Part shown: piece by piece, positions 3,141-64,000 of the stretch
How the letters are laid out: each line of letters starts with the position of its first letter
Numbering within the stretch: position 1 is the first letter of the stretch
Position numbers and translations under genes: made by a program
The notes under the pieces: model-generated
The model's input: the letters and a program-made list of their open reading frames with translations, nothing else
What the model was told of the DNA's origin: nothing
Databases searched by the model: none
From: Actinomycetota bacterium
GTDB lineage: Bacteria > Actinomycetota > Coriobacteriia > Anaerosomatales > PHET01
Assembly: GCA_029265315.1 (NCBI GenBank)
Contig: JAJUJM010000004.1
Location: forward strand, 13,032 to 77,031
Length of the DNA stretch: 64,000 nt
Direction: 5' to 3'

Positions 3141-3155
3141 GCGGCTTGCTCCCTT

Positions 3156-7820: not shown

Positions 7821-7966
7821 CGGACGATCGACCCCCTCGGGATCTCGCGGCGAAAGTGGACCGATTGTACCCCAAGCGCCGATCCACCCCGGTGACGATA
7901 TCGGGACCGATACCGCGATGGGTACAGGTCCCGATACGTCATCGGACGCATGCGCGCAGGAACGCG

Positions 7967-10634: not shown

Positions 10635-10679
10635 CGGACTGCTTCTTCCTGGTTCCAGATACGGTCATCTACGGTGCCC

Positions 10680-11744: not shown

Positions 11745-11747
11745 CAG

Positions 11748-28574: not shown

Positions 28575-28711
28575 GGTTCACCTCGACGAGATGTGATGGG
28601 GACGGGTTTGGTGCGATGACCAACCTACTATGTCCCCAACCCGGCGAGTCGCCGGATACACGGAATCGTCACGGCGACGTCGCAGACGCTTCACCAAGTG
28701 ACTCACGGACG

Positions 28712-31543: not shown

Positions 31544-31544
31544 G

Positions 31545-33769: not shown

Positions 33770-34275
33770 CGCTCGCCCTCCTCTCGCGACCACCACACGG
33801 CCCCCACGAGCGCCGCGGTCAGCACGAGCGACGCGATCTCGAAGGGCAGCACCCAGCCCTCGATCTCGAACAGGCGCTCACCGAACTCACGCACGCCGGG
33901 AAACACGTCGGGCTCGACACCCGGGACCAAGACACCGCCCGCCACGGCCACGGCGACAGCCGCGAAGAACGTCACCGCAAGAGCGAGCCCCGGCCACGAG
34001 AAGTCACGCGGCCGCACCGCGTCCTCGCGGCGTCGGAGCGTGATCATGATGGTGAACAGGTTCAGGATGGCCACCGCCCCCGCGTACACGAGCACCTGCA
34101 TGAGGGCCAGGTACCGAGCTTCGAGCAAGGCGAACAGGCCGGCAGCGGCGATGGACACCGCGAGCAGGCAATACGCCGCGTGCACGACGTTGCGGGCCGT
34201 CAGCATGCCGACAGCCGAAGCGACAGAGACGAGAGCGAGCACGCCGAAGGCGACGAGCGTGTACGTGTCAGTCAT
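33766..34275 (-). CDS. nuoJ: NADH-quinone oxidoreductase subunit J
   Basis: 169-aa hydrophobic protein in the operon position between nuoI and nuoK. Confidence 0.85.
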   Translation of the reverse strand: MTDTYTLVAFGVLALVSVASAVGMLTARNVVHAAYCLLAVSIAAAGLFALLEARYLALMQVLVYAGAVAILNLFTIMITLRRREDAVRPRDFSWPGLALAVTFFAAVAVAVAGGVLVPGVEPDVFPGVREFGERLFEIEGWVLPFEIASLVLTAALVGAVWWSREEGER

Positions 34276-34798
34276 GCTCGGGCTCCCTCGGTGCGTCCTG
34301 TTCCGATTCGGGGGCCGCTTGAGCGGCCTCTTGGACGGGCGTCCGCTCGGGCCTGTCCGCGGGTGTGTCCGCGGCCTTGCGTTTCGGTCCGGCCGCAGGA
34401 GTGTCCGTGAGCAGCGCGACGTCGAGCTCCTCGGGCCTGAATCGGGCGAGCTCGTAGTCGTGGCCCATGCGTATCGCGTCGAACGGGCACGCCTCGACGC
34501 ACAGGCCGCACATCATGCAAGCCCCGATCTGGTACCCCCAGCGGTCGATGTGCTTGCTGCGGTCCTCACCGGTCGTGACGTCGATCCTGATGATGTAGTC
34601 AGGGCATGCGCGCTCGCACGCCAGACACGCCGTGCACCTGTGGGAACCGTCCTCGTCGCGCACGATCTCGACCGCCCACCGCGAACGCTCGGGCAGCTCC
34701 ACCTTCTCGTGCGGGTACTTGACCGTGATCGGACCACGCAGCAGGTTCCGAAACGAGATGCGCATGCCGTTCAGGATGCCGGTGCCCCACACGCTCAC
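34268..34798 (-). CDS. nuoI: NADH-quinone oxidoreductase subunit I (2x[4Fe-4S])
   Basis: This is the C-terminal 176 aa of track ORF 34268..36217. GTG at 34798 overlaps the nuoH stop (GTGA). Two ferredoxin motifs are present: CTACLACERACP and CMMCGLCVEACP. Confidence 0.88.
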   Translation of the reverse strand: MSVWGTGILNGMRISFRNLLRGPITVKYPHEKVELPERSRWAVEIVRDEDGSHRCTACLACERACPDYIIRIDVTTGEDRSKHIDRWGYQIGACMMCGLCVEACPFDAIRMGHDYELARFRPEELDVALLTDTPAAGPKRKAADTPADRPERTPVQEAAQAAPESEQDAPREPEHD

Positions 34799-35796
34799 GA
34801 GACACCTCCGATGAGAGCGGGTCCCAGCTTGACCGCGAGGCCGGTGATGACGATCCACACCAGCGTGGCCGGGAGCAGGACCTTCCAGCCCAGCGACAGC
34901 AACTGGTCGATGCGAACACGAGGAAGGGTGCCGCGGACCCACATGAGTACGGCGATGACGAGGTAGGTCTTGATCATGAAGACGACGGCCCCGCCCACGC
35001 CGGAAAGCAACGCGTCCGGTACGAACGGCAACGTCCAGCCGCCGAAGAACAGCGTGACCATGAGTGCGGAGAAGACGAACGTGTTGCTGAACTCGGAGAG
35101 GAACAGAAGGCCGAACTTCATCGACGCGTATTCGGTCGCGAAACCGGCCACGAGCTCCGATTCGGCCTCGGACATGTCGAACGGCGTCTGGTTGGCCTCG
35201 ATCAACCCGGCGACCAGGAAGAAGAGGAACGCCGGGAAGCACGGGACGATGAACCAGACCGAGCCCTGTTGCGCACGGACGATGTCGGCCAGGTTCATCG
35301 AGCCGGCGATCATCACGGGCGGCAGCGCAGCGAGCAACAGCGGCACCTCGTACGTGACCTGCTGCGCGATCGAACGCATCGCGCCGAGCAGTGACCACTT
35401 GTTGTAGCTCGCCCATCCTGCGGCGAAGATCCCAAGGGTCACGAGCGAGAGGATCGCGAAGGTGAACAGCAGTCCTGCGTCGAGGTCGGCCGCGATGATG
35501 CTGCTCGAGAAGGGCAGTGCCGCATACGCCGCGAGCGAAGGCACGAACACGATCAGCGGTGCCAGGAAGTACAGTACCCGGTCGACCATCCCCGGTGTGG
35601 GGTCCTCCTTGGTCAGGAGTTTGACCACGTCGGCGAGGGTCTGGAACATCCCGGCGGGACCCAGCTCGGTCGGCCCGAGCCGTACGTGCAGGTGACCGAG
35701 CACCTTGCGCAGCATGTAGATGAGCACGACGCCGTTGAGAAGCATGAGCCCGACGGCGGCGAGCACGCGGAGTGTGGCGATCAGAACGGGGCTCAT
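34795..35796 (-). CDS. nuoH: NADH-quinone oxidoreductase subunit H
   Basis: 333-aa polytopic protein with the MSEAESELVAGFATEYASMKF motif. Its start overlaps the nuoD stop by 4 nt. Confidence 0.9.
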   Translation of the reverse strand: MSPVLIATLRVLAAVGLMLLNGVVLIYMLRKVLGHLHVRLGPTELGPAGMFQTLADVVKLLTKEDPTPGMVDRVLYFLAPLIVFVPSLAAYAALPFSSSIIAADLDAGLLFTFAILSLVTLGIFAAGWASYNKWSLLGAMRSIAQQVTYEVPLLLAALPPVMIAGSMNLADIVRAQQGSVWFIVPCFPAFLFFLVAGLIEANQTPFDMSEAESELVAGFATEYASMKFGLLFLSEFSNTFVFSALMVTLFFGGWTLPFVPDALLSGVGGAVVFMIKTYLVIAVLMWVRGTLPRVRIDQLLSLGWKVLLPATLVWIVITGLAVKLGPALIGGVS

Positions 35797-36998
35797 CGGT
35801 CGATCTCCCCCAGCACCACGTCCACGCTACCCAGGATGACGACCGCATCGGCCAGAAGCGTCCCCGGAAGGATAGCCTCCGCCGCCTGCAGCGCATAGAG
35901 CGCGGGCGGGCGGTAGCGCATACGATACGGGGTGTCCGAACCGTCCGACACGAGATGCACGCCCAGTTCGCCTCGCGGCGACTCGACGGCGGCGTACGCC
36001 TCACCCACGGGAGGCCGCAGCACCTTTGGTACCTTCGCCATGAACTCGCCTTCCGGAAGGCCCTCGATGCACTGACGCACGATACGCACCGCCTCGCGCA
36101 TCTCGCCCATCCGGACGAGGTAACGCGCGAGGCAGTCTCCGTCGCTCGACATCGGCACAGCGAAATCCATCTCATCGTACGCGGCGTACGGGCGGTCCTT
36201 GCGAACGTCGAAGCCAAGGCCGCTGGCCCGCAGGTTCGCCCCGGTCAGGCCGAATGCGATGGCCGTCTCCAGGTCGATGGTCCCAACGCCCCGGACACGG
36301 CCTTGGAAGATCTCGTTGCCGCCCAGAAGCTGGTCGTGCTCATCAAGGTGCGTGTCGATGGTGGAAAGGAACGCGTGTATCTTCTCGACCGCCGTGGGGG
36401 TGATGTCAGCGACCACCCCGCCGGGCCGGACGTAGTTGAACATCATGCGCTGGCCCGTGACGTCCTCGAGGATGTCGAGAAGCGCCTCGCGGTCCCTGAC
36501 CGCGTACAGGAACTGTCCCATGGCGCCCGTGTCCAGACCGAAGGTCCCGTACCAGACGAGGTGACTCGCGATGCGGTTGAGCTCTGCCATGAGCACCCGA
36601 AGCCACTGTGCTCGCCGCGGGACCTCGATCTCCATGATCGCTTCGGCCGCCAGCGCGAAGGCGAGCTCGTTGTGGATGCCGGAGACGTAGTCTCCTCGGT
36701 CCATGAGGGTGCCGACAGCGTTGTAGCGCCTGTGCTCCGCGAGCTTCTCGATGCCTCTGTGCAAGTAGCCGATGACCGACTCCGCCGCAACGACCTCCTC
36801 GCCGTCGAGCTCCAGCAGGACGCGCAGGACACCGTGGGTGGAAGGATGCTGCGGCCCCATGTTGACGATGAGCCGCTCGGTGTCGAGGGCGTCCACGCCC
36901 ATCGGTGCGCGCCTGAGCGACGCCGGGACGAACCCGACGTCGGTCGGAGGCGTGTCGGTGAGCCAACCGGCGTGCTCTACGAGGTGGCGCGGGTCCAT
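35793..36998 (-). CDS. nuoD: NADH-quinone oxidoreductase subunit D
   Basis: 401 aa with NMGPQHPSTHGVLR and YLHRGIEKLAE motifs. Followed directly by nuoH. Confidence 0.92.
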   Translation of the reverse strand: MDPRHLVEHAGWLTDTPPTDVGFVPASLRRAPMGVDALDTERLIVNMGPQHPSTHGVLRVLLELDGEEVVAAESVIGYLHRGIEKLAEHRRYNAVGTLMDRGDYVSGIHNELAFALAAEAIMEIEVPRRAQWLRVLMAELNRIASHLVWYGTFGLDTGAMGQFLYAVRDREALLDILEDVTGQRMMFNYVRPGGVVADITPTAVEKIHAFLSTIDTHLDEHDQLLGGNEIFQGRVRGVGTIDLETAIAFGLTGANLRASGLGFDVRKDRPYAAYDEMDFAVPMSSDGDCLARYLVRMGEMREAVRIVRQCIEGLPEGEFMAKVPKVLRPPVGEAYAAVESPRGELGVHLVSDGSDTPYRMRYRPPALYALQAAEAILPGTLLADAVVILGSVDVVLGEIDR

Positions 36999-37462
36999 CA
37001 GCGGTTGCGCACCTCCTCGGCGGTCCTGATGGGATGCTCCTTGAGCAAGAGCGGTTCAGAGCCCTTGGTGAGCAGCAGGTGCTTCGGATTGGGATGGCCC
37101 GACAGCGTCAGGCCGAACATCTCAGCGCACTCACGCTCGGGCATGAGCGCTGCGGGGAAGATCTCCCACACGCTCTTCAAGTCGGAACCGTAGTCCATGT
37201 CGATCTTCACGTAGAGGTCCTCGTCCCGGCCGAACGAGCGCAGATGGTAGACGACATCGACCGCGTCGCCGGTGTCGATGCCGAACAGGTCCACGAGGAA
37301 CTCGAACCCGTCCTCGGACTCCTTCAGGGCGCGAAGCACGGTGTGGACGTTCGACGGCGTCGCGCGGACGACGACGCCCAGCGACGCGACGTCGTCGATC
37401 TCGATGCCCTTCAGCCCGACGGCTGAGAGCGTTCTAGCCAGCGCTGCCGTGTCGGGCCGCAA
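36998..37462 (-). CDS. nuoC: NADH-quinone oxidoreductase subunit C
   Basis: 30-kDa subunit core ([10 protein letters not shown]...VVYHLRS...[10 protein letters not shown]). The start is uncertain. In-frame TTG at 37462 was chosen, which overlaps the nuoB end. The upstream part of the track ORF lies inside nuoB in another frame. Confidence 0.75.
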
Positions 37463-37940
37463 GGCGCTCCCCCGTCTTCTCGCTGATCTTGTCCATGAGC
37501 CTGAAGAACGCATACTGCACCGACTCGGGACGAGGCGGGCAGCCCGGGACGTAGACGTCGACCGGCACCACCTTGTCGACACCCATGACGACGTTCGGGT
37601 ACTCGCGGAATGGGCCTCCCGTGCTGGCACATGCGCCCATGGCGATGACCCACTTCGGTTCGGGCATCTGGTCGTAGAGACGGCGCACGGTCGCGGCCAT
37701 CTTCTCGTTCACGGTCCCGGCCACGATCATGACGTCGGCCTGCCGCGGGCTCGCACGGAAGAACACGCCGTGACGGTCGAAGTCGAACCGCGGCCCTGAC
37801 GCGTGCATGAGGCCCTCGATGGCGCAGCACGCGATGCCGAACGCCATGTACCACAGTGAATGACGGCGCGCCCAGTCGAAGAGCTGCTCGCTGCGGATGA
37901 ACAGGATGGAGTTCTCGCCGGTGAACCTGTCTATCGCCAC
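37434..37940 (-). CDS. nuoB: NADH-quinone oxidoreductase subunit B
   Basis: GTG at 37940 follows a GGAGGGAG SD. N2-cluster cysteines are present: [26 protein letters not shown]. Confidence 0.9.
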
Positions 37941-38311
37941 CTGAGCGCTCCCTCCTTCCACGCGTAGGCCAGACCGCCCGCGAGAATCGCGATGAAGATG
38001 ATCATCTCGATGAAGACGAACCACCCGATTCCCGGACGGCCGAAGGTCACGGCCCACGGATAGAGGAACACGACCTCGATGTCGAAGATCACGTACAGGA
38101 GCGCGTACACATAGTAGCCGGCGCGGAACCGGACCCACGGCCCCCCCACCGGCTCGACGCCGCACTCATACATCGTTATCTTCTCCGGCGAGGGGGCTTT
38201 GGGCGACAGCAACCACGAGGCGCTCAGCGTGAGCACGGTGAAGGCCGCCCCGATGACGATGAAGAGCGCTATGACGATGCTCTCGAGACTCAAACGACGC
38301 CCCTTACCCAT
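37931..38311 (-). CDS. nuoA: NADH-quinone oxidoreductase subunit A
   Basis: ATG at 38311 ([16 protein letters not shown]...). Contains YECGVEP and [11 protein letters not shown] motifs. 126 aa. Confidence 0.88.
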
Positions 38312-38600
38312 CGCATTGGCCACCCGGCGCTGCCGGGCGCCGCACCCGCTCGGCACTGCGAGCGTCCGGAGCGGGCATGCTCTCGCCCGGATGCCGACTC
38401 CCGACTTGGGGGGTGTCCGTCGGACACTACCATACACCGACGCGCAAGCTACCAGTCGAGCGGCGACAATCATCGGTGAACGGCTACATTCCGGCGGGGA
38501 ACGGCGACGTCATACCCCGCCTGGTATTTGAGCACGCCATCGCTCGCACGTGCCGCACAGACCGCCGACGGCCTGGGACTGAAGCGACTCCGAGCTCATC

Positions 38601-53256: not shown

Positions 53257-53970
53257 CTACGGCGTAGCTGTCGTGACCTGACCTTTGAGGCGCGCGATCT
53301 CGCTCTTCGCGAAAGCGGGGTCGCCACCCCGAGCCCCGTCCGGGTCGAGCTGAAGGTACTTCTCGTAAGCGGCGACGGCCTTGTCAGCCTCGCCCAACGC
53401 GTTATAGAACACGCCGAGATTGAAGTAGGCAGGACCGAAATCGGGTGTGTCCTTCGTGACCTGTTCGGCGGTCTTGATGGCGGCATTGGTCTCGCCCGTG
53501 TAGAAGAGCGTGATCGCGTAGTCGACCGTCACAGGCGCCTCGCCTTGTTTCACCGCGAGGGCCCGCTCGTATGCGTCCTTGGCAGCGACCCATAGCGGCT
53601 GATCGGCACCGATCGTCGCGCTGTCCGTCTGACTGGCCTGCTGCAGCTGAATCGCCCAGTCGAAATAGGTGTTGCCCAAGCTGACCAGAACCGGATAGCT
53701 CTCCGGTTCACTTTGCAGCTGCGCGGTGAGCGAAGCGACCGTCGGCTGGAACTGCTGATCGATCGACTCGCGAGTGCTCAACTGACCCGGCTGGTTCGCC
53801 GTGCCGTTCCCCCCAGAGAAGGCGTTGCCGAACAGGGGTATGAAACTCGCCACGAACGCGATGATCAGGAAGATCAGGATCACTTTGACGCCGAGCGACG
53901 TCTGGGCCTTGTTGAGTGCCACAGGCGACCTCCTGGTGAAGAGAGGACAGGTCACGGGCCCGGCGCTCAC
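53257..53970 (-). CDS. membrane-anchored TPR-repeat protein
   Basis: One N-terminal TM (VKVILIFLIIAFVASFIPLF) followed by TPR-like repeats (LGNTYFD..., AYFNLGVFYNALGEADKAVAAYEKYLQLDP). Start uncertain. Confidence 0.65.
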   Translation of the reverse strand: MSAGPVTCPLFTRRSPVALNKAQTSLGVKVILIFLIIAFVASFIPLFGNAFSGGNGTANQPGQLSTRESIDQQFQPTVASLTAQLQSEPESYPVLVSLGNTYFDWAIQLQQASQTDSATIGADQPLWVAAKDAYERALAVKQGEAPVTVDYAITLFYTGETNAAIKTAEQVTKDTPDFGPAYFNLGVFYNALGEADKAVAAYEKYLQLDPDGARGGDPAFAKSEIARLKGQVTTATP

Positions 53971-54604: not shown

Positions 54605-55951
54605 TCAGCCCCGAAGCTTCATCCTGAGCTCCTCGGCCCGACTGTACAACCGTTGCGGATCGAGCCTGCTCCAGGAGTGCCGCTGGTAGAGGACCTCGCC
54701 CGCCACCATCGTCCAGAGCACGTTCTCCTGGTTCGCGGTGTGGACGAGCGTGCTGTAGGGATAGTGTGTAGGCACCTGGTGGCTCTCAGACAGGTCGACG
54801 GCGATGATATCGGCCTGCTTGCCGGGCTCGAGTGAGCCCACGCGGTCCTCGATGCCCAAGGCACGTGCCGAGTCCAGCGTGGCCATCTTGACGAACTGCC
54901 TGGCCGGAACGAACCGTTCCTCGCCGAGCAGCGCGCGCTGCACCAGCAAGCCGATACGCATCTCCTCGAACTCGTCCATCGAGTTGCTCGCAGCCGGCGA
55001 GTCCGTCCCAAGACCCACGCGGACGCCCGCAGCGAACAGCTTGGCGAGCGGTGCGGTACCCATCCCCAACTTCGCGTTGCAGCGCGGACAGTGCGCGACC
55101 GCGACATCACGCGACGCCAACACCTCGATGTCCGCATCGTCGATCTGCGTGCAGTGGACAGCGAGGACGTTGGGGGCGTCGAGTATGTCCCACTGCAACA
55201 CGTAGCGAACCGGGCTGACCCCGGTGGGCAGCCACAGCGGCGCGTGCGAATCGAAGGTGTCCCTGACATCGGTGGCGAGCATCGACGAGCCGTACTTCAC
55301 GAACTGGTACTCTTCGCGACTGCCCGCAAGGTGCATCGCCACCGGCGTGCCGTCGGCGGCGAAGCCGGCCACCGCACGGAAGAGCTCCGGGTGACACGAG
55401 TACGGCGCATGCGGCGCGATACCGGCGACGATCCGCTCCGCGCCTGTGGCGCTCCGCCAAGACTCGACGTCTTCGGTCGCCCGTCTCATCACCTCCGCCA
55501 CCTTCGGCTTCTCCATCGTGGCGACTTCGCGGTAGACGACGCCGCGAAGCCCCGACATGACCGCGGCACGGAACGACGCCCCGCTCGCGGTGATGTCGGC
55601 TATCGTGGTGATCCCGGATTGAAGCGCCTCGAGAGCGCCGAGCTGCGCGGAGTCCTCCCAGTCCTGTTCGCTGAAGAGCCTCTCCTTCTGAAGCAGCTGG
55701 AGCTTCCATCGCGAGTACGGCACATCGTCCACAAGGCCCCGCATGGCGGTGTACTCGAGGTGGGTATGGGCATCGATGAAACCGGGCATCAGCGCCGCGA
55801 GACCGAAATCGGTGACCGGTTCGTCCGGGTGGAGTTGCTTGAGGCGATCAGCCTCGCCGATCTCGACGATGGAGTCCCCGTGCACGAGCACCGCACCGTG
55901 CTCGATGTGTGGTGCGGCGATAGGGAGCACGTAACGGGCGGTGAGCAACAT
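54605..55951 (-). CDS. amidohydrolase-superfamily deaminase (MTA/SAH- or aminofutalosine-deaminase-like)
   Basis: ATG at 55951 follows a GAAGGGGA SD (MLLTARYVLPI...). Metal ligands GFIDAHTHLE, MHLAGS and GLGTDS are present. The 101-aa extension in the track was rejected. Confidence 0.8.
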   Translation of the reverse strand: MLLTARYVLPIAAPHIEHGAVLVHGDSIVEIGEADRLKQLHPDEPVTDFGLAALMPGFIDAHTHLEYTAMRGLVDDVPYSRWKLQLLQKERLFSEQDWEDSAQLGALEALQSGITTIADITASGASFRAAVMSGLRGVVYREVATMEKPKVAEVMRRATEDVESWRSATGAERIVAGIAPHAPYSCHPELFRAVAGFAADGTPVAMHLAGSREEYQFVKYGSSMLATDVRDTFDSHAPLWLPTGVSPVRYVLQWDILDAPNVLAVHCTQIDDADIEVLASRDVAVAHCPRCNAKLGMGTAPLAKLFAAGVRVGLGTDSPAASNSMDEFEEMRIGLLVQRALLGEERFVPARQFVKMATLDSARALGIEDRVGSLEPGKQADIIAVDLSESHQVPTHYPYSTLVHTANQENVLWTMVAGEVLYQRHSWSRLDPQRLYSRAEELRMKLRG

Positions 55952-56034
55952 GGCGCCAATCCCCTTCGGGCGTCGTTTGAGAAGTCTCCCGCCGATTCTA
56001 CCGCACGCATGCGGCACCAGCCGCCCGGCCTCTT

Positions 56035-56766
56035 CTATCTCAGCGCCGTGTGCAGTGCGACGATGCCGCCCGTGAGATCGCGCCACGAGATGACCGAGAA
56101 CCCGGCGGCGCGCAGCTCGGCCGCCAGCTCCGCCTGATCGGGGAAACGCCGGATCGAGTCGTTCAGGTAGACGAATCCGTCGCGTTGACCGGTGAGCAGA
56201 CCGCCGATCGCCGGGACGGCATGCCGCAGGTAGACGTGGTACAGGCCACGCCACGGCGCGAAGGGCGGGTGCGAGAACTCCAGGACCACGTAGCGACCGC
56301 CCGGCCTGAGCACGCGACGGACCTCAGCGAAGTTCGCCGCGCGATCGGGCAGGTTGCGGACCCCGAACGCGACGGTCACGACATCGAACTCCTCATCGCC
56401 GAACGGCAGGTCCTGCGCGTCCGCGAGCTCGACAGTGAGTTGTGTCGACCCCTCGTAGCGTGCGATCTTCTCGCGCGCGACATCGAGCATCTCGGGGGTG
56501 AAGTCGGTCACCACGACGGCGGCCGGGGCCGCCTGACGCGCGATCGCAAGCGCCACATCGCCCGTACCCGCACACAGGTCGAGCACCCGGTCTTCCGGTC
56601 GCAGAGCACAGGCACGGACGAGTTCACGGCGCCACAGGCGGTCGATACCCAGCGATGCGAGCATATTGAACGAGTCGTAACGGTCAGCGATGGTTGAGAA
56701 GATGCCCTGAACGCGCTCGGTGGTCGCCTCGCCCGGAGCAGGCTCATCGTGTGTCATGCGCAACAA
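56035..56766 (-). CDS. menG: demethylmenaquinone/ubiquinone C-methyltransferase
   Basis: UbiE/MenG signature FSTIADRYDSFNMLASLGIDRLWRR and SAM motif VLDLCAGTGD. 243 aa. Confidence 0.88.
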   Translation of the reverse strand: MLRMTHDEPAPGEATTERVQGIFSTIADRYDSFNMLASLGIDRLWRRELVRACALRPEDRVLDLCAGTGDVALAIARQAAPAAVVVTDFTPEMLDVAREKIARYEGSTQLTVELADAQDLPFGDEEFDVVTVAFGVRNLPDRAANFAEVRRVLRPGGRYVVLEFSHPPFAPWRGLYHVYLRHAVPAIGGLLTGQRDGFVYLNDSIRRFPDQAELAAELRAAGFSVISWRDLTGGIVALHTALR

Positions 56767-56772
56767 GGTCCT

Positions 56773-58590
56773 TTATGCCTCGCCGGCTTCGTATGCGGTC
56801 CGCGCCGTGTGGCCGGCATGCTGGTCGGACTTCGCCGGCGGCACGATTCCCTTGAGGTGGCCGACGACGTTGTTGACATTCTCTCTCAACCACAGCCCGG
56901 CGGCAGCTGCGACATGCCGGATCTCGACTGAGTGGGGCCAGTTGAGCTCGGACTTCTCGCATACGGTGGACTGCGATAGCCGTTCGGACTCGTACTTGAG
57001 CGCCCATAGGGCGGGCTCACGAAGAGGTTCGGGCCCTGCCATGATCTCATCTATACGATTCAGCACGAGTCGCGCTTCCAGGATGCGCGACTCGGTACGT
57101 GCTGCGGTAGCTCTGTCGATGATGCCGGCCGCCGCCTTGGTGCGATTGACGGACAGGCCCGCGTCGTAGGTGGCATCGGCCATCTCGTCCGGACCCATCG
57201 CGGCGCTCTCGTAGTTCATGATGTACTTCCAAGACGGCATCACGAGTCGCTGCCGGTGCTCTTCCAGCGTACGCGCCCTCAGCGTGTAGCCATACTCAGA
57301 CGGGTTGTCGAACGCTCGGGAACCGGGATCGAGGAACGGCGCCATCGGGCTCACGAAACACAGAAGCCGCGGGTCGTTGCCGACGGACTCGTACAGATGA
57401 CGGATGTAGTTGGCGGTCTCACGCACCGACGCCGCCGTCTGCGTCGGGATGCCCGTCATGAAGTACAGGTCGAAGCGGCTGCACCCGTTCTTGAGCGCGT
57501 CTTTGACCGTCTGCTCGACCTGGGCCATCGTGTAGTGACTCTTGCCGAACGCCGCGCGCACGTCGTCGTCGTGGCTCTCGACGCTGATCTCCACCGACCA
57601 GTCGTCCAGATGGGCGTCGAGAAACTGGTAGAACTCCTCGTGTGGCGGCTTGAAGAACTCGAAGCCGATGGGGTTTCGCATCCCGATGCGCTGGAGCCCC
57701 TTCACGAAATCGCGCGTGTACTCTCGGCCGGCTTGGAGGAAGTCGTTCAAGACGAACATCGGGCCGGGGATGTAGCGCTGGATGTGCTCGATGTCGCGCA
57801 CGAGAAGCTCCGGGTCGCGAAACGCCACCCGGTCGCGCCCGAAGTGCTCGCGGAACGAATAGGCCGAACCGCCACAAGTCACACAATCGTGCGTGCACCC
57901 CCTGCAGGTGAGCGAAGCGCACACAGGGTACTTCAGCCAGTCCTTGAAGGGGACAACACCCATCATGTCGCGGTAGCGGATGACGGACTTCATGTTGAAG
58001 GAGTAGTCGAGCGAGATGGCGTTCATGTCCGAGGGGACCCAGGACAGGGGGTTCACGTTGACGGCGCCACTCGCATCCTTCCACGTCAGGTTGGGAATCT
58101 CATCGAGCCGGCCGTCGCGCTTGATGGCCTCCACGAGCCGGCGAAAGGGCTCTTCCGTCGAGTCGCCCCGCAGCACGAAATCGACCGCGTCGTAGGAACA
58201 CAGCTCCTCATGGAAGTAGCTCGACGACAGGCCACCGAAGACCACCGGCGTGTCGGGGTGGTACTTCTTGACGATACGGGCGACCTCGACCGACCCGTGA
58301 GCATGAGGCAGCCAGTGCAGGTCGATACCGAACAGTGCCGCATCAAGCCCGCGGATATAGGCTTCGACGTCGAAACCGGGCTTGTTGAGCATCAGCACCG
58401 CGAGATTGACGATGCGGACACGCACCCCGTGGCGCTCTAGATACTCCGCCATCGTCGTGAAGCCCAGCGGGTACATCTCGAAGATCGGCGTCGACGGCAC
58501 CATGTCCGAGACCGGCCCGAACATGATCGAGCGCTCTCGGAAGTCGTACACGGCGGGCGCATGAAGCAAGACGACGTCGACTCTGGGCAT
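56773..58590 (-). CDS. B12-binding-domain radical SAM protein (class B), function unknown
   Basis: 605 aa. An N-terminal Rossmann-like B12 domain (VVLLHAP...VVFGGLSSSY) is followed by CTHDCVTC (CX3CX2C) and a long C-terminal extension. Its stop lies 6 nt before menG. Confidence 0.75.
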   Translation of the reverse strand: MPRVDVVLLHAPAVYDFRERSIMFGPVSDMVPSTPIFEMYPLGFTTMAEYLERHGVRVRIVNLAVLMLNKPGFDVEAYIRGLDAALFGIDLHWLPHAHGSVEVARIVKKYHPDTPVVFGGLSSSYFHEELCSYDAVDFVLRGDSTEEPFRRLVEAIKRDGRLDEIPNLTWKDASGAVNVNPLSWVPSDMNAISLDYSFNMKSVIRYRDMMGVVPFKDWLKYPVCASLTCRGCTHDCVTCGGSAYSFREHFGRDRVAFRDPELLVRDIEHIQRYIPGPMFVLNDFLQAGREYTRDFVKGLQRIGMRNPIGFEFFKPPHEEFYQFLDAHLDDWSVEISVESHDDDVRAAFGKSHYTMAQVEQTVKDALKNGCSRFDLYFMTGIPTQTAASVRETANYIRHLYESVGNDPRLLCFVSPMAPFLDPGSRAFDNPSEYGYTLRARTLEEHRQRLVMPSWKYIMNYESAAMGPDEMADATYDAGLSVNRTKAAAGIIDRATAARTESRILEARLVLNRIDEIMAGPEPLREPALWALKYESERLSQSTVCEKSELNWPHSVEIRHVAAAAGLWLRENVNNVVGHLKGIVPPAKSDQHAGHTARTAYEAGEA

Positions 58591-58824
58591 GCTGAGGCGG
58601 GTCCTTTCCTATGCACGGTATGTCCGGACCCCTGCGACGGCTCTTGCGCCGCACCCCTCGCCAGCGCCTGGTCGACGCACGCGAGAGGCGAGTGTAGCAC
58701 GACGCGCAGGGTGACCGACAGAACATGTGCGCGTCGCCGTATTCGACGCAAGAGGCGAGTCACCTGCTCGCGGCGTTCATCCCGCGACTTCTCTCGCGAT
58801 ACGGAGTGGCTCCCGTGATGAGCA

Positions 58825-58851
58825 GGGCCCCGTCCGCAGTGGACGGGGCCC
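58825..58851 (-). terminator. GC-rich hairpin terminator downstream of cytochrome gene
   Basis: Perfect 11-bp stem GGGCCCCGTCC-5 nt loop-GGACGGGGCCC, 33 nt after the stop at 58884. No clear U-tract. Confidence 0.5.
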
Positions 58852-58883
58852 CACAAGTCACACCGAGAGAATCAGTGTGCTCC

Positions 58884-59552
58884 TTACGGCAGACCCTTGA
58901 GCAGGAGCTCCCAGCCCATGGTCGTGCCGGATCCGTACGTACCGAGCGGCAGCGGAGACGTGGTGGTCGTCTTCGCGAACGCAGGATTGTCGCCGTTCCA
59001 GTACGTCGCATCGCCGTGACAATCGATGCACACGGAGTCCAGGTTCTCGACTGCGGCGTTCTCAAGAGCGCCGGAGTCAGTCTGAACCGCCGGGATGATC
59101 GACGTGCCGTTGCGGGTCTCGCCCGTCCACAGCGCGAAGTCGGTACCGCTGAACTTCGCCGCGTCGCCAAGCGAGATGGTATCGACCGTGGCGGTGGCAT
59201 TCCCGCCGTTGGTGGTGCGGGTACCGCCGAAGGCCACCGGCGTGCCGTCGAAGTCGACACCGTAGAGCTCGTCCTTCAGCATGTTCGCGCCGAGCGTGCG
59301 GTGCGGGTAGCTGAAGCCTCCGTCGATGCACTTGCCATTGAGGCCGGCGACCGCGCTCTGCTTCAGGTAGGACTGAGCGGCGTAGTTCGTCTTGCCGGAC
59401 ACCGGCGCGGTGATCGTGGCGGTGTAGGCCGCTGAGAAGTTCGAAGTGTCATCCGAGTGACACACGTCGCAGTTGCTCGCACCGATATGGCAGTTGCGGC
59501 AGTGCGGACCCTCGTTGTCGTCACGCCCGTCCCCATCGGTCCCGATGGGCAT
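58884..59552 (-). CDS. multihaem cytochrome c, C-terminal portion (3 CXXCH); probably continuous with 59562..60722
   Basis: Motifs CRNCH, CDVCH and CIDCH. No signal peptide and no SD. Same reading frame as the upstream ORF, separated from it only by TGA plus three codons. Confidence 0.7.
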   Translation of the reverse strand: MPIGTDGDGRDDNEGPHCRNCHIGASNCDVCHSDDTSNFSAAYTATITAPVSGKTNYAAQSYLKQSAVAGLNGKCIDGGFSYPHRTLGANMLKDELYGVDFDGTPVAFGGTRTTNGGNATATVDTISLGDAAKFSGTDFALWTGETRNGTSIIPAVQTDSGALENAAVENLDSVCIDCHGDATYWNGDNPAFAKTTTTSPLPLGTYGSGTTMGWELLLKGLP

Positions 59553-59564
59553 CTGGCGCGCTCA
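59532..59564 (-). other. in-frame TGA (59562-59564) plus downstream hairpin (59532-59549): candidate recoding (SECIS-like) element or nonsense lesion
   Basis: The mRNA reads UGA-GCGCGCCAGAUG-CCCAUCG-GGAC-CGAUGGG. The stem is 7 bp, the spacer is 12 nt, and the apical loop is G-containing. Confidence 0.35.
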
Positions 59565-60722
59565 ATGACGAGGCTGCGCGTCGTGAGCGTAAGCGAGCAC
59601 ATACGTACCGGTCGTGCTGTCGCTCGCGCTCGGCTTCCAGACCTCGGCCTGCTGCGTCGAAGCGCCGGCAGTACCGTCGTGGCAGTCGGTGCAGAACTCG
59701 GACTCGGACAGGAAGCCGCCCGTGCCCGTCGGCGAAGTGCCGCTGGCCGGCGCGAACGGGAAGGGGTTGTCGTTGTCGTTGTCCTGGTAACCGCCGTAGT
59801 AGGTGTCCGCAGGGCCAAGCGGCTCGACCCAGTTGATCGCGTACTTGTTCACACCATTGGTGGCCACCACGCCGAAGCCGGCCACATCCGTGTCCGTCTT
59901 CGTCTCCATCGCGTCCGTATGCGGGTTCTTCAGGAGCAGGAAGCGGCCGGACGGCCAGATCGGGCGATAGCGGAACGCGAACACGCCTGCGGTGTTGTTG
60001 CCGTCCCAGACGAAGTTGCCGTAATCGACGTCGATGCCCCACTCGTTGTCCTCGAGCAGACCGTCCTGGTCACCGTTGCCGAAGCCGGCCTTGATCGGCC
60101 AGTTGGCGGCAAGGGTGTCGAGCTGCGTCGTGGTCGGACGCCCCTGCTGCCCCGGGCCGACGAACGCGCGACCGGGGTCCGAGAACGTCGTCAGGATGCG
60201 AGCGGAGTTGCCGTGCGGGCTGTGGCAGTCGAAGCACGCGAAGCCCTCGGGGTCGCTGTAGGCCGGCTTGATGTCAGCCGGGGCGTTACCCTTGTAACCC
60301 AGCGTGTGTCCCGTGCCGAAACCCATGGTCGACGTGGCGATCGCCGACGCCTGCGCGACGTCGAACGCACCCGTACGGTAGTCGTTGTCCATCTGGATGT
60401 TGATGGTCGATCCGCCACCGCCGCCATGGCAGTAATCGCACGCGGCCTCACGGGAAGAAGCACGGAGCAGCTTGAAGCTACCTTCGGCATAGTGCGTGGA
60501 GTGGCAGTCAGCGCACTTGTTCGTGGTAGTCGTGTAGCCGCCGTGCGGACCCGAGAAGTAGCCGGTCGCGCGGGTGTACTGCAGCGGGTTGTTGTACCCC
60601 TCGGCGAACGCCGGAGCGACGCCAAGAGCCACGACAACGACCGCGGCGACGGAGACGAGCAGGATCCTCTTGATCACTGATGCCTCCTTCTTGCGGACTG
60701 AACGGAAAAGGCGCCTTGTCAT
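59562..60722 (-). CDS. secreted multihaem cytochrome c, N-terminal portion (4 CXXCH)
   Basis: ATG at 60722 follows AAAGGGGGTG; an alternative GTG at 60677 follows AAGGAGG. Signal peptide is ...IKRILLVSVAAVVVVALGVAPAFA. Motifs are CADCH, CDYCH, CFDCH and CTDCH. Ends at TGA 59562. Confidence 0.8.
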   Translation of the reverse strand: MTRRLFRSVRKKEASVIKRILLVSVAAVVVVALGVAPAFAEGYNNPLQYTRATGYFSGPHGGYTTTTNKCADCHSTHYAEGSFKLLRASSREAACDYCHGGGGGSTINIQMDNDYRTGAFDVAQASAIATSTMGFGTGHTLGYKGNAPADIKPAYSDPEGFACFDCHSPHGNSARILTTFSDPGRAFVGPGQQGRPTTTQLDTLAANWPIKAGFGNGDQDGLLEDNEWGIDVDYGNFVWDGNNTAGVFAFRYRPIWPSGRFLLLKNPHTDAMETKTDTDVAGFGVVATNGVNKYAINWVEPLGPADTYYGGYQDNDNDNPFPFAPASGTSPTGTGGFLSESEFCTDCHDGTAGASTQQAEVWKPSASDSTTGTYVLAYAHDAQPRH

Positions 60723-60750
60723 GTGTTCACACCCCCTTTCGGTCGACAAG

Positions 60751-60772
60751 GTCCGGTCCGGTCGGACCGGAC
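60751..60772 (-). promoter_or_regulatory. 9-bp GC hairpin in cytochrome 5' leader
   Basis: GTCCGGTCC-ggtc-GGACCGGAC, located between the putative promoter and the SD. Confidence 0.35.
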
Positions 60773-60818
60773 AGATGCACGCCCGCACGATGAGACGGGC
60801 TGCTCTGCCTCACTCTGA

Positions 60819-60848
60819 AGAATAGTGAATCTGATAACTAGGAATCAA
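60819..60848 (-). promoter_or_regulatory. candidate sigma70-type promoter for cytochrome gene
   Basis: Minus strand reads TTGATT-18 nt-TATTCT within the A+T-rich intergenic region. The spacer coincides with one arm of the 14-nt inverted repeat. Confidence 0.3.
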
Positions 60849-60870
60849 TATGTTTCGTTATCTGATTCAC
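60825..60870. promoter_or_regulatory. 14-nt inverted repeat (operator-like)
   Basis: GTGAATCTGATAAC (60825-60838) and GTTATCTGATTCAC (60857-60870). 13/14 positions are complementary, with an 18-nt spacer. Confidence 0.5.
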
Positions 60871-60871
60871 T

Positions 60872-60897
60872 AATACTGACGATTCGATTTCAGTATT
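60872..60897. promoter_or_regulatory. 8-nt inverted repeat
   Basis: AATACTGA-10 nt-TCAGTATT, immediately adjacent to the 14-nt repeat. Confidence 0.4.
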
Positions 60898-60921
60898 CTC
60901 GCAGGTCAGAGCCCTGACGCG

Positions 60922-60956
60922 ACGAATGGGCACCTCTGCGAGAGCCGCCCATTCGT
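60922..60956 (-). terminator. 10-bp hairpin downstream of NHL gene (possible terminator)
   Basis: ACGAATGGGC-15 nt-GCCCATTCGT, 60 nt after the stop at 61017. No U-tract. Confidence 0.3.
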
Positions 60957-61016
60957 GTATTCGCCAACTAAACTGTTTCTAAACGCGCCGACCTCGAGCC
61001 GAGCGACCGACCAAGG

Positions 61017-62444
61017 CTACTCAGCTATGCGGTATTCGGCTTGAAGCTGCTCGAGTGTGACGCGCTTCCCGGGCGCTTCCCTGTACGCTTCAGCATCATC
61101 ATCGTCCGCGACCACCAAGACGACCCGCGGCAGGAGCACTCGCTCAAGCCCTTGTGGCCGCATGGCGCGTGACAGGGCCCCGATCGGGTCCTCGCTCCCC
61201 TTCTCGCCAACAGCTGCGAGGTACTCCGCCAGAGCCACGCCCTCCTCGGTCACGTCTGCGAAACGCTCATACACCTCAGGCAACACGTGCAGCTTCCTTG
61301 AGACAGCGGCCAAGAGACGCAGCTGACCTTCGTCCATCGCGCGCTTCAGCGCTTCGTCAGTCGCGAACCAACGTTTCCTGCCGAGCACGAACGGCAGTAT
61401 CGCGAGCATGGCCAGCGGCACAAGCCACCACAGCCACGGGTTGCGGCGCAACACGTTGTCTTCCTCCGGCAGAAGCAGCCTCACGATCTGGACGCGGTCG
61501 TTGTACGTGTCGGTGATGGCGAAGGTCTCGCCCCCCAGGTAGGCGATCGACGTGGGGAGGTTGAAGCGGCCGTCGCTCTTGCCTTGGAGCTCCTCAAAGG
61601 TGTGGATGAGTCTTCCCGTGTCCGCGTCGAGGACCCTGATCGCATGCTTGAATCCGTCCAGCACGAACACACGTCCACGGTCGTCGAGCGCCACCCCTGT
61701 CGGCAGGCCATACTCGACCTTAGGGTCGTCCTGGAACCGACCGGGCTTCCCGTCCACCCACCGGACCGTGGCAGTCGTCTCCCCTTCCAATGCGACCCGC
61801 TGCACACGGTTGTTGTTGGAGTCGGCGACGATGAGCTCACCGCCCTGAGCTGGCACAGCGGAACGCGGGTAGTCGAACTGTCCGGACTCAAGTCCGCGCG
61901 TGCCGACCTCTCCTTGAAGCTCGCCTTGGTCTGACAGCAGGACCACCGGACCGAACGTCAACACCGCGACGCCGTCGGGCATGACCACCGGCGCCAGCGG
62001 ATTCAACACAGGGATCTCCCAGAGGAACTCGCCCTGCGTCGTGAAGCACAGAACCCTCAATCGCGAACGGTCCGCCACGTACACATGGTCCGCAGCGCGG
62101 TCGACGGCCACGCCTATCGGCACGAGCATCTGCCCCTGCTCAAGACCGCGCTCGCCCCACGTGCGGACCCAGTCGCCCCCGCGGTCGAACTCCACGATGC
62201 GCTGCGTGTCGCGCAACGTGACGTAGAAGTCGCCATCGTCCGCGGCCGCCAACCCGACCGGTCGCCTCAGATTCTCACCATTCGCCACATAGATCGAACG
62301 GACAGGGACCACGCCCGACGGAGCGCCGCCCTCCTGTCGCCGGTCCTCAGTGTCACCGGTCAGCCAGAAGAACAGCGCCGCGAGGCCGAGCAGCAAGGCC
62401 AGCAGCAGAACCAGGATCCACAACAGCGCTCGGTTGCTTCTCAC
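61017..62444 (-). CDS. bitopic-flanked NHL-repeat beta-propeller protein with cytoplasmic C-terminal domain
   Basis: N-terminal TM (LLWILVLLLALLLGLAALFFWL). Repeated NHL-like blades follow (PVGLAADDGDFYVTL, PIGVAVDRAADHVYVADRSRLRV, LIVADSNNNRVQRV, PTGVALDDRGRVFVLD, PTSIAYLGGETFAITDTYNDRVQIV). Then comes a second TM (WLWWLVPLAMLAILPFVLG) and a tail of about 130 aa. The GTG start overlaps the TPR gene stop (GTGA). Confidence 0.75.
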   Translation of the reverse strand: MRSNRALLWILVLLLALLLGLAALFFWLTGDTEDRRQEGGAPSGVVPVRSIYVANGENLRRPVGLAAADDGDFYVTLRDTQRIVEFDRGGDWVRTWGERGLEQGQMLVPIGVAVDRAADHVYVADRSRLRVLCFTTQGEFLWEIPVLNPLAPVVMPDGVAVLTFGPVVLLSDQGELQGEVGTRGLESGQFDYPRSAVPAQGGELIVADSNNNRVQRVALEGETTATVRWVDGKPGRFQDDPKVEYGLPTGVALDDRGRVFVLDGFKHAIRVLDADTGRLIHTFEELQGKSDGRFNLPTSIAYLGGETFAITDTYNDRVQIVRLLLPEEDNVLRRNPWLWWLVPLAMLAILPFVLGRKRWFATDEALKRAMDEGQLRLLAAVSRKLHVLPEVYERFADVTEEGVALAEYLAAVGEKGSEDPIGALSRAMRPQGLERVLLPRVVLVVADDDDAEAYREAPGKRVTLEQLQAEYRIAE

Positions 62445-63190
62445 TGTGCGTCACCGCCCTCGGGGGCACCGTGCGGGTTCGGCGTGGCGGTCGGCTCCGA
62501 GTACTCGACCCCCAAGCGCCGCAGCCCGGCGATGGCCTCCTCATTCCCGGGCAGGAACTTCAGTGCCTTCTTGTAGTTGTCGATCGCCTCGCCCTTCCTG
62601 CCGGCCTTCTCGAGTATCTGGGCGTACACGATCCCCATGTCCGCGGCAGCCGGATCGATGCGCAGGCCCGTCTGCATGGCTTTGATCGCCTCGTCGTAGT
62701 TGGCGTTCTCCGCAAGGATCTGGGCCAACAGGAAGTAGGGCTCCGCCTTGCTCACACCAGTGATCTTGATCTCAGCCCGAACGTGCTTCTCCGCCAAGTC
62801 AAGTTGTCCGTCCCGCACGTAGAGGGTCGCGAGCCTGAGGTTGTAGAACGGCTGTTTCTCGGCGTTCTTGACGGCCTCACGGGCGTGCCTGAATGCGTCC
62901 TCGGTCTTTCCCATGTCGAACTCGACCTCGGCCAATGACATCAGTGTCGCGGGGTCGGCCGGGTTGTTGTTCAACCCTTGCACGAGGAGGTCATAGTCCC
63001 GCTCGAGCGCAGAACGCGGCTCTCCGCTGAAAAGGCCACCGTTGAGCAGCAAGTAGACCAACACGCCGGTCAGGACGACGACGGTCACCGCGAGCACCAA
63101 CACCACTGCACGGTTGCTTCCGCCGACACGGCGGACTTTGGGCAGCGCACCTGCCACGGAATCACTCACCCTTCGAGATGTGGACGACAT
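62441..63190 (-). CDS. membrane-anchored TPR-repeat protein
   Basis: One TM (AVVLVLAVTVVVLTGVLVYLLL) followed by TPR repeats (LMSLAEVEFDMGKTEDAFRHAREAV, YFLLAQILAENANYDEAIKAMQTGLRIDP, IVYAQILEKAGRKGEAIDNYKKALKFLP). Confidence 0.75.
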   Translation of the reverse strand: MSSTSRRVSDSVAGALPKVRRVGGSNRAVVLVLAVTVVVLTGVLVYLLLNGGLFSGEPRSALERDYDLLVQGLNNNPADPATLMSLAEVEFDMGKTEDAFRHAREAVKNAEKQPFYNLRLATLYVRDGQLDLAEKHVRAEIKITGVSKAEPYFLLAQILAENANYDEAIKAMQTGLRIDPAAADMGIVYAQILEKAGRKGEAIDNYKKALKFLPGNEEAIAGLRRLGVEYSEPTATPNPHGAPEGGDAQ

Positions 63191-63200
63191 TCGTGACTTC

Positions 63201-63214
63201 GTTCATGAATGAAC
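63201..63214. promoter_or_regulatory. short inverted repeat just upstream of TPR gene start
   Basis: GTTCAT-GA-ATGAAC, 11 nt upstream of ATG 63190, at the position where an SD would be expected. Confidence 0.2.
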
Positions 63215-63266
63215 GGTTAAGGCCGCAAGCATCCTAGCAAGGCTGATGCCCCCTCACAAGCGAAGC

Positions 63267-64000
63267 TCATCGGTACGGATCGGACTCATGGCACAACCCG
63301 CAGAAGGTGACCGCGTGACACCGGCAGCCCCCCGGGCCGTTGGCCGCCGCAGCGGCCCCGTGGACAGGAAACCATTGCGAGTAGGTGCCGTGCAGGTTGA
63401 CGACGTCGTGACAGGCGCATGCGTCCTGCCTCGTCGGCCTGGCGGTCTCGTGGCACTTCGCACACAGAGCGGGGTCGGAGTATGAGACGCCCGCGTGCTG
63501 GCCTGCGAAGGCCGGCGGATGCGGCAGCACCAGTCCGTGGCATTCGACACATGACCGATCGGTGCGTGCCGAGTGGCACCCCTTGCACGTCACCGGGGCC
63601 GCCGACACGCCCATCGGCACCCTCGTCGCGTCACTGTCTGAGGGCTTCCCGCTGATGTGGCAGGTGACGCAGTCCGCATCAGCGACGCTTCCGTCGTGAC
63701 AGTGCAGACAACGAGACATCACGGGGCGCACGATCGCCACGGTTCGACTGGCGACCGTCCGTGTCTCGTCCGCACTCGTCGCATGTCCCACGCCAGGGTG
63801 ACATGACAGACAGGTGCCTCCGGATTCGATGATGTCGCTGTGCCTGACCCTGATCCCGTTCGACTCGAGTGAACCCCCAGCGATCGCCTTGTGACACCGG
63901 ATGCACGCGCCGTCGGACACCGGTGACCGCGGCCCCTCCGAGATGAGGGAGGCAAACCCCGCAGCCGAGGCCTGCCATGCTCCGAAGACGCCCGGCTGCG
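63267..64000 (-). CDS. multihaem cytochrome c (at least 8 CXXCH), probably 5'-truncated by window edge
   Basis: Motifs CIRCH, CLSCH, CLHCH, CVTCH, CKGCH, CVECH, CAKCH and CGLCH within 217 aa. The track ORF starts at GTG 63920, but the frame stays open to 64000 and encodes a hydrophobic stretch (...FGAWQASAAGFASLISEG...) that looks like a signal or anchor. Confidence 0.8.
   Translation of the reverse strand, partial: QPGVFGAWQASAAGFASLISEGPRSPVSDGACIRCHKAIAGGSLESNGIRVRHSDIIESGGTCLSCHPGVGHATSADETRTVASRTVAIVRPVMSRCLHCHDGSVADADCVTCHISGKPSDSDATRVPMGVSAAPVTCKGCHSARTDRSCVECHGLVLPHPPAFAGQHAGVSYSDPALCAKCHETARPTRQDACACHDVVNLHGTYSQWFPVHGAAAAANGPGGCRCHAVTFCGLCHESDPYR

Follow-up and report, generated by a model that had tools for sequence, protein, structure and literature searches.

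A respiratory cytochrome cluster of Anaerosomatales carries a probable heptahaem selenoprotein gene

Introduction

The closest described counterpart of the gene reported here is MccSep (ExtKL, GSU2937-2936), a five-haem polysulfide reductase in the periplasm of Geobacter sulfurreducens. In this enzyme, described in August 2026, Cys239 ligates the active-site haem and selenocysteine (Sec) 325 attacks the substrate (PMC13510729; PDB 9WT8-9WTC; NF040886). A selenoproteome review of 2026 names three cytochrome families with selenocysteine: ExtKL (NF040886), GSU2204 (NF041027) and, in its Sec form, the octahaem tetrathionate-reductase family (TIGR04315) (PMC13188914). Here we analyse a cluster of cytochrome genes in a 64,000-nt stretch of an Actinomycetota genome (GCA_029265315.1, contig JAJUJM010000004.1, positions 13,032 to 77,031; hereafter the window), the largest of which encodes a secreted cytochrome with seven CXXCH haem-binding motifs and contains an in-frame UGA that is very probably read as Sec.

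The product of this gene resembles MccSep in several respects. Both are multihaem cytochromes of the c type that are secreted; in both cases an in-frame UGA, followed by a stem-loop downstream, interrupts the gene, which annotations divide into two open reading frames (ORFs). In both, Sec- and Cys-type homologues coexist, basic residues are found near Sec, and there is a conserved extra Cys, which serves MccSep as distal ligand to its active-site haem. MccSep has five haems and about 450 residues, the window family seven haems and, in the mature protein, about 570 residues. In MccSep, Sec is part of a C-terminal Ig-like domain (PDG-U-PTPN); in the window family it falls between haem motifs 4 and 5 (PRH-U-ARQM). 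MccSep is periplasmic in diderm Desulfobacterota and Nitrospirota and has the rhodanese ExtH and the porin ExtI as neighbours, whereas the window family occurs in monoderm Actinomycetota beside NapC-type cytochromes, TPR and NHL proteins. Neither a Cys-type homologue nor the family profile matched MccSep (9wt8 and 9wt9 in the PDB library) at E ≤ 10, and neither half of the large cytochrome matched NF040886, NF041027 or TIGR04315 at E ≤ 0.01, although the TIGR04315 and NF041027 families are likewise c-type cytochromes with Sec-containing members. No paper describing this heptahaem selenoprotein family was found in the literature. Judged from these comparisons, the putative selenoprotein belongs to a second multihaem selenoprotein family, unrelated in sequence to MccSep, that repeats the logic of a haem chain with a conserved Cys and a Sec.

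With the electron-transfer chains of Thermincola and Carboxydothermus the cluster shares a membrane-bound, quinol-oxidising multihaem cytochrome combined with secreted multihaem cytochromes in a monoderm cell. Desulfovibrio ferrophilus and Ca. Tenderia encode NHL and TPR proteins beside multihaem cytochromes in clusters for the export or uptake of electrons (PMC5815863; bioRxiv 10.1101/2022.05.06.490989); in systems of that type the NHL protein is associated with the outer membrane, whereas that of the window is held in the cytoplasmic membrane by two transmembrane (TM) helices. None of these four systems has been reported to contain Sec. The OmcE and OmcS filaments have CXXCHxxH and CxxCHDG haem motifs in common with the large cytochrome, which differs in being 2.5 times longer, in a predicted beta-rich insertion and in the lack of a structural match. 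PDB sequence, profile and Foldseek searches detected no homology of this cytochrome to OcwA, MtrC or OmcS. The profile search of the PDB gave no significant match, its best hits (OmcE 7tfs_A, E 0.46; 9yuq_N, E 2) being confined to the haem motifs, so that an OmcS/OmcE-like fold, as envisaged in an earlier note on the window made from its sequence, was not demonstrated.

Results

An in-frame UGA in the heptahaem cytochrome gene

The earlier note had described a cytochrome of about 610 residues with seven CXXCH motifs. The motifs, their spacings, the CADCHSTH and CFDCHSPH signatures and the signal peptide were all recovered, but the note had overlooked a TGA at codon 387, which divides the gene into two ORFs of the same frame, 59565..60722 and 58884..59552. 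The CXXCH motifs are at residues 70, 95, 163, 344, 408, 418 and 565, and the signal peptide, read from the sequence, comprises residues 1-40, ending in AFA ahead of EG. The elements of the gene are as follows.

58884..60722, minus strand: heptahaem cytochrome gene, very probably a selenoprotein gene, of 612 codons including UGA, with an ATG start, an AAGGGGG ribosome-binding site, a signal peptide and seven CXXCH motifs
59562..59564, minus strand: in-frame UGA (U387) in the motif AHDAQPRH-U-ARQM, kept in more than 25 homologous genes and replaced by Cys in paralogues
59532..59549, minus strand: SECIS-like (selenocysteine insertion sequence) hairpin CCCAUCG-GGAC-CGAUGGG, starting 13 nt past the UGA, with its apex 24.5 nt from U
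59328..59330, minus strand: codon of the invariant lone Cys465 in the motif C-I-D-G-G-F-S-Y-P-H-R, a candidate haem ligand or resolving partner of Sec

Across 39 loci from a genome collection (numbered with the prefix L below), more than 25 homologous genes have TGA at the position of codon 387, followed by conserved in-frame sequence that includes CRNCH and CxxCH. They come from metagenome-assembled genomes (MAGs) of Coriobacteriia/Anaerosomatales and from several Ca. Aquicultor genomes, thus from two classes, and are 30-90% identical. When the joined sequence was used as the query, many of the proteins retrieved were 340-430 residues long and ended exactly at ...SHDAQPRH, while longer homologues ran on with Cys, encoded by TGC or TGT, at the Sec position (for example SHDAQPRS-C-NRQM and SRG-C-ARQQ). 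Among the best 120 homologue clusters, 81 end at the UGA codon (...PRH), 27 have Cys and 12 have another residue.

The C-terminal 222 residues, used as a query, retrieved more than 100 clusters of stand-alone "hypothetical protein" ORFs in which no Pfam domain was found. This part of the window gene has neither a ribosome-binding site nor a signal peptide, yet contains three invariant CXXCH motifs. It cannot stand alone, because without a Shine-Dalgarno sequence and a signal peptide it would have to carry haem motifs whose attachment requires export. The Met at which the C-terminal ORF would start belongs to a motif, RQM, that is present also in uninterrupted homologues. A global reassignment of TGA was ruled out, TGA being the commonest stop codon in the window and ending 29 of its 57 genes. 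A scan of the window and of L001-L040 for other ORFs split by an in-frame TGA gave no convincing case. Taken together, these comparisons make it very probable that the cytochrome gene is a selenoprotein gene in which UGA is read as Sec.

An Aquicultor-like genome (L017) has three tandem cytochrome paralogues, each with an in-frame TGA (1791-4385, 6662-9304 and 9695-11776), which adjoin an NHL protein gene, and a subtilase is encoded nearby. At L025 (10001-13783), from a long-read MAG, both copies of the cytochrome gene are broken into several frames, either by assembly error or by pseudogenisation.

A conserved hairpin follows the UGA

Eleven of 13 Sec genes of the Coriobacteriia type have a perfect stem of 6-8 bp after the UGA, with the apex 24-28 nt from U and a G-containing loop. 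The peptides encoded across the hairpin vary (MPIGTDGD, MTLNPGGS, MVSGQDTD and others). In one alignment register of the stem (A) 39 of 42 cells were paired, with compensatory double changes at 2 of 7 pairs; in the other (B) all 42 cells were paired and 4 of 7 pairs showed such changes. The Cys-type paralogues scored like shuffled sequence (mean 4.17 vs 4.27), and 2.5% of the shuffling trials produced a stem of at least 7 bp. The Ca. Aquicultor genes have a less clear hairpin, with a stem of 4-6 bp encoded by the conserved peptide FNPEDG. An Rfam scan of 58500-64000 returned a single sub-threshold match, which was spurious. The hairpin just downstream of the UGA would be expected to direct its decoding as Sec by SelB and tRNA-Sec.

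Selenocysteine machinery in related genomes

The search for decoding machinery covered tRNA-Sec, SelA and SelB. A 46-nt pattern taken from Coriobacteriia tRNA-Sec gave 87 matches as its complete list; nine assemblies that carry the cytochrome locus are among them, and in each of the nine ARAGORN called tRNA-SeC with anticodon TCA. SelB (TIGR00475) was found at 354.8 bits (cut-off 242) in the MAG holding L014 and as a fragment in that of L006, and SelA (TIGR00474) at 547 bits in another Anaerosomatales MAG. Two side observations concern these genes: selA, selB and tRNA-Sec are clustered in Coriobacteriia (L087 1-3493; L269; L289; L314), and the D-arm and anticodon-arm sequence of tRNA-Sec, CCTGGTGGNNCCCGCGGNCTTCAAANCCG, is common to several phyla.

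Conserved residues and predicted structure of the heptahaem family

All 32 full-length homologues share the seven CXXCH motifs, six further His residues (H60, H77, H139, H170, H380 and H474) and the lone Cys465, which, in the motif C-x-DGGFS-x-PHR, is kept even in paralogues with neither Sec nor Cys at position 387. Sec is placed between haem motifs 4 and 5 and flanked by R385 and R389; the residue before it is His in 81 of 81 Sec forms (...PRH-U) and mostly Gly or Ser in Cys forms. An invariant Cys465 together with only six invariant His outside the motifs, for seven haems, would fit a His/Cys-ligated active-site haem beside Sec. The assemblies of L012 and L013, in which copies without Cys at the Sec position occur, also hold a Sec copy.

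Pfam matches were generic and confined to haems 1 and 2 (Paired_CXXCH_1, 34.1 bits; Cytochrome_C7), the other ~500 residues matching no family. The family is small, with 64 representative clusters at 50% identity among 1.84 billion proteins; a 1617-residue candidate homologue with 14 matched stretches (P0264) was rejected as a low-complexity false positive. Haem-free AlphaFold2 models were made of a Cys homologue (P0039; 43 sequences), with a mean predicted local distance difference test score (pLDDT) of 51, and of a second homologue (P0036; 150 sequences), with a pLDDT of 68.7 and a predicted template modelling score (pTM) of 0.74. The latter confidently predicted a beta-rich insertion between haems 3 and 4. 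Foldseek found no match to the PDB at E ≤ 0.001 for either model.

Organization of the cluster

The order on the minus strand and the coordinates of the four genes of the cluster are those given in the earlier note. Together with their non-coding elements and downstream neighbours they are listed below.

63267..64000, running past the window end, minus strand: 3' part of cytA, a multihaem cytochrome gene, whose 243 codons here include 8 CXXCH motifs
62441..63190, minus strand: TPR protein with a membrane anchor, a single hydrophobic helix at the N-terminus, ahead of the TPR repeats (Pfam TPR_2, 57.9 bits)
61017..62444, minus strand: TM - NHL beta-propeller - TM protein (Pfam NHL, PF01436, 82.8 bits vs cut-off 20)
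60922..60956, minus strand: GC-rich hairpin directly 3' of the NHL gene, a possible terminator or attenuator between two transcription units
60823..60872, minus strand: 16-nt inverted repeat with an 18-nt spacer, a candidate operator, within the core of 40% GC that precedes the Sec cytochrome gene
58822..58854, minus strand: terminator-like GC-rich hairpin with no T-run, 30 nt past the TAA stop of the Sec cytochrome gene
56773-58590, minus strand: B12-radical SAM protein, TIGR04190 (646 bits), a conserved downstream neighbour
56035-56766, minus strand: UbiE/MenG methyltransferase (235 bits), a conserved downstream neighbour
54605-~55900, minus strand: TRZ/ATZ-type amidohydrolase, a conserved downstream neighbour

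Searches by tblastn with the window proteins recovered a conserved order in at least 12 related loci: cytA' - cytA - TPR - NHL - Sec cytochrome - B12-radical SAM - UbiE/MenG - amidohydrolase - second TPR protein, where cytA' is a second cytochrome gene upstream of cytA. This recurrence far exceeds chance expectation. No nitrite, sulfite or tetrathionate reductase, Psr, rhodanese or other sulfur gene was linked to the cluster in any locus examined, and thus no soluble-substrate reductase of the kind that would have told against the electron-export function proposed in the earlier note.

The cytA fragment in the window, with the eight haem motifs expected as a minimum, scored 19.9 bits against Pfam Cytochrom_NNT (NapC/NirT; PF03264), under the cut-off of 24.1, whereas full-length orthologues scored 30.6 (L040) and 25.2 bits (L007), above the cut-off. 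The orthologues have 366-389 residues, an N-terminal TM helix and more than 8 haems rather than 4 as in the NapC/NirT/NrfH type. The N-terminal anchor ascribed to the window protein falls past the window end and is therefore known from orthologues (L007) only. Pfam matches and coordinates bore out the TPR and TM-NHL-TM proteins, the GTG start of the NHL gene overlapping the TPR stop by 4 nt (GTGA). A role of the TPR protein as a CcmI/NrfG-like chaperone found no such backing: it scored 33.1 bits against TPR_CcmH_CycH (PF23914), under the cut-off of 42, and generic TPR families scored higher. The TPR protein is retained in synteny across related loci. About 90 clusters of NHL orthologues share contigs with the cytochrome. 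The C-terminal tail of the NHL protein, ~118 residues after the second TM helix (61017-61370), has no Pfam match; predicted to be cytoplasmic, it is of constant length across the ~90 orthologue clusters.

The intergenic region 60723-61016, which had been noted as an A+T-rich control region, is indeed of low G+C content (54%, with a core of 40%, against 66% for the whole window). Hairpins comparable to that at 60922-60956 directly follow the NHL gene at L007 (9637-9666), L014 (7273-7313) and L008 (9636-9665). Because this GC-rich hairpin recurs in relatives, the arrangement suggests that the Sec cytochrome gene may be transcribed apart from the cytA-TPR-NHL genes. The arms of the inverted repeat upstream of the Sec cytochrome gene are TAGTGAATCTGATAAC and GTTATCTGATTCACTA, separated by the 18-nt spacer; the element may be an operator, and its spacing is unlike that of Rex operators. 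The corresponding position in L040, L001, L007 and L014 showed no such repeat. A promoter scan of the window region found none, and a terminator consensus scan gave two terminator-like sites, both irrelevant. That scan did not call the hairpin at 58822-58854, so that of the terminator proposed after the large cytochrome gene a strong GC-rich hairpin remains, without the T-run.

Downstream, the genes at 54605..58590 are a menaquinone-related context for the cytochrome cluster, and the menG neighbour named in the earlier note is the UbiE/MenG gene listed above. In Anaerosomatales loci the TIGR04190 B12-binding radical SAM protein always adjoins UbiE/MenG and the TRZ/ATZ-type amidohydrolase, and it may serve to modify quinones, for instance as a methylase.

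The locus in Parvivirga hydrogeniphila

One homologue of the large cytochrome (P0031) is MCL4079320 of the isolate Parvivirga hydrogeniphila Es71-Z0120, whose locus has the same order, TGA included. The annotation of this genome splits the cytochrome gene into MCL4079320 and a separate ORF of 179 residues. Upstream of the cluster lie genes for a membrane protein resembling O-antigen ligases, for the regulator Rex and for CcsA and ResB of system II, so that the cytochrome maturation system whose presence was to be checked is encoded directly beside the cluster in this organism. The downstream region matches the window as far as the TatA/C, HypA/B and TopA genes. Because of this extended match, the window is, by its gene order, part of an Anaerosomatales chromosome, in agreement with the Actinomycetota backbone read from it before.

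P. hydrogeniphila is an obligate Fe(III) reducer that grows only with Fe(III); according to its published description, S0, thiosulfate, sulfite, selenite, selenate and arsenate are not reduced (PMC9686372). Khomyakova et al. discussed the adjacent cluster MCL4079323-32 as a candidate for Fe(III) reduction, with no mention of selenocysteine (PMC9686372). Anaerosoma tenue, a reducer of S0 and thiosulfate of the same order, is absent among the named homologue matches, most matches carrying no name; the wording of PMC9686372 on the cluster in A. tenue is ambiguous. Since P. hydrogeniphila grows with Fe(III) only and no match is named A. tenue, Fe(III) or another extracellular acceptor is favoured over an MccSep-like reduction of sulfur compounds, a preference that depends on one isolate.

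Discussion

In gene content, recoding signals and synteny, the region is the distal half of a conserved Anaerosomatales respiratory module. For the direction of electron flow, the roles of the scaffold proteins, the Sec-Cys-haem site and the acceptor, we infer the following scheme. Menaquinol would be oxidised by two membrane-anchored multihaem cytochromes of the NapC/NirT type, the products of cytA and its upstream paralogue. The membrane-anchored TPR and TM-NHL-TM proteins, whose repeat domains are predicted to face outward, would serve as an assembly or docking scaffold for the selenoprotein, and the electrons would pass to this terminal component, a heptahaem selenoprotein secreted by the Sec export pathway. 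There U387, flanked by Arg385, His386 and Arg389, may constitute the reactive site of a terminal reductase to which the other haems deliver electrons; its partners would be the lone Cys465, which is invariant, and a haem possibly without a distal His. The acceptor would be extracellular, most likely of the Fe(III) type as in Parvivirga. A precedent for a site made of haem, Cys and Sec is MccSep (PMC13510729). That U387, C465 and a nearby haem form the reactive centre of a terminal reductase is proposed tentatively, its chances being in our estimate slightly below even. The electron-export module of the earlier note is thus retained as a conserved respiratory-cytochrome module in a monoderm lineage, but its terminal cytochrome, a probable selenoprotein, looks less like a passive wire at the surface than like a protein with a reactive centre, because of the Sec/Cys site and the invariant lone Cys.

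Several observations weigh against this scheme. The evidence for decoding machinery is drawn from related genomes, and the link to Fe(III) is that of a single isolate. Tyr, Leu, Arg, His or Gly replaces Sec/Cys in 12 paralogue clusters; because some paralogues carry such residues, the Sec/Cys residue is dispensable for folding and perhaps for some functions. The count of haem ligands is weak evidence, as Met111 (94% conserved) could also ligate haem. The AlphaFold models are haem-free, with mean pLDDT of 51 and 69. Finally, a simple transfer of electrons to Fe(III) does not require Sec.

In a different account of the same chain and the same selenoprotein, the latter is an MccSep-like reductase for a soluble chalcogen compound (polysulfide or S0, selenite, thiosulfate or tetrathionate) and does not transfer electrons to Fe(III) or a solid phase. 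Sec would attack the substrate, the haem-ligating Cys would resolve the adduct and the haems would deliver the electrons. To our knowledge, Sec is found at the catalytic redox site in all characterised selenoenzymes, which speaks for such chemistry. The Sec, the invariant lone Cys and the flanking Arg parallel U325, C239, R83 and K372 of MccSep (PMC13510729), and His/Cys haems are typical of the sulfur-metabolising cytochromes TsdA, SoxAX and DsrJ (cited in PMC13510729). However, P. hydrogeniphila has the gene with its UGA and is reported to reduce none of S0, thiosulfate, sulfite, selenite, selenate and arsenate (PMC9686372), no match is named A. tenue (most carrying no name), no rhodanese, Psr or other sulfur gene is linked to the cluster, and there is no sequence similarity to MccSep. 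We regard a chalcogen reductase as unlikely, if conceivable.

Still less probable, and in our view improbable, is a passive wall or surface conduit, or a nanowire of the OmcE/OmcS type, in which Sec/Cys would be an unusual axial haem ligand or a structural residue that tunes redox potential. Sec can ligate metal in [NiFeSe] hydrogenase and formate dehydrogenase, and the CXXCHxxH signatures, with the weak, partly collinear profile matches to 7tfs_A (E 0.46) and 9yuq_N (E 2) over CxxCHTPH/CxxCHDG, would fit a conduit, as would the documented cases of NHL and TPR proteins alongside multihaem cytochromes in clusters for electron export (PMC5815863; bioRxiv 10.1101/2022.05.06.490989). Yet the PDB matches are not significant, Foldseek returned nothing with the model of pTM 0.74, the six invariant His and Cys465 already make seven possible distal ligands without Sec, and paralogues with Leu, Arg or Gly cannot ligate haem through position 387. 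The notion that the TGA is a real stop, leaving either a pseudogene or two genes (a four-haem secreted cytochrome and an unrelated cytoplasmic protein of 222 residues), agrees with the way in which gene callers and the NCBI annotation split the gene, as in MCL4079320 and its 179-residue companion. It is contradicted by the comparative data, and we hold it to be highly implausible: the stop codon has the same position in more than 25 genes with conservation on both sides and is Cys in paralogues, the downstream part has invariant CXXCH motifs with neither signal peptide nor ribosome-binding site and a "start" Met that is that of the conserved RQM, a covarying hairpin follows the TGA, and related genomes have selenocysteine machinery.

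Carried further, the reading of U387 and C465 as a reactive centre leads to selenium-dependent extracellular respiration, with the heptahaem selenoprotein as the terminal reductase of Fe(III) or minerals and a Sec-Cys pair or a Sec-ligated haem contacting the acceptor. This we consider doubtful. If true, it would be the first case of a selenoenzyme that takes part in extracellular electron transfer, and also the first within the cytochrome chain of a monoderm, and iron reduction by widespread subsurface actinobacteria would depend on selenium. The occurrence of an unrelated family in another phylum and another type of cell envelope suggests that Sec and a haem chain were brought together more than once in evolution. 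In well over 100 sequence clusters, that of the P. hydrogeniphila type strain among them, the gene is mis-annotated as a truncated "multihaem cytochrome" and a "hypothetical protein"; because the gene is split in annotations, haem counts and electron-export models for Anaerosomatales (OPB41) and Ca. Aquicultor are probably wrong for the large cytochrome. As an obligate Fe(III) reducer that can be cultured has the gene in its core respiratory cluster, a selenium need of Gram-positive iron respiration is directly testable.

Other features of the window

A second membrane-anchored TPR protein (53257-53970) lies in synteny downstream of the menaquinone genes and has a weak match to TPR_CcmH_CycH (24 bits). 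Read by eye, the translations at about 28700-38500 suggest a complex I-like operon with nuoA, B, C, D, H, J, K, L, M and N, in which nuoE, nuoF and nuoG seem to be missing from the interval between nuoD and nuoH.

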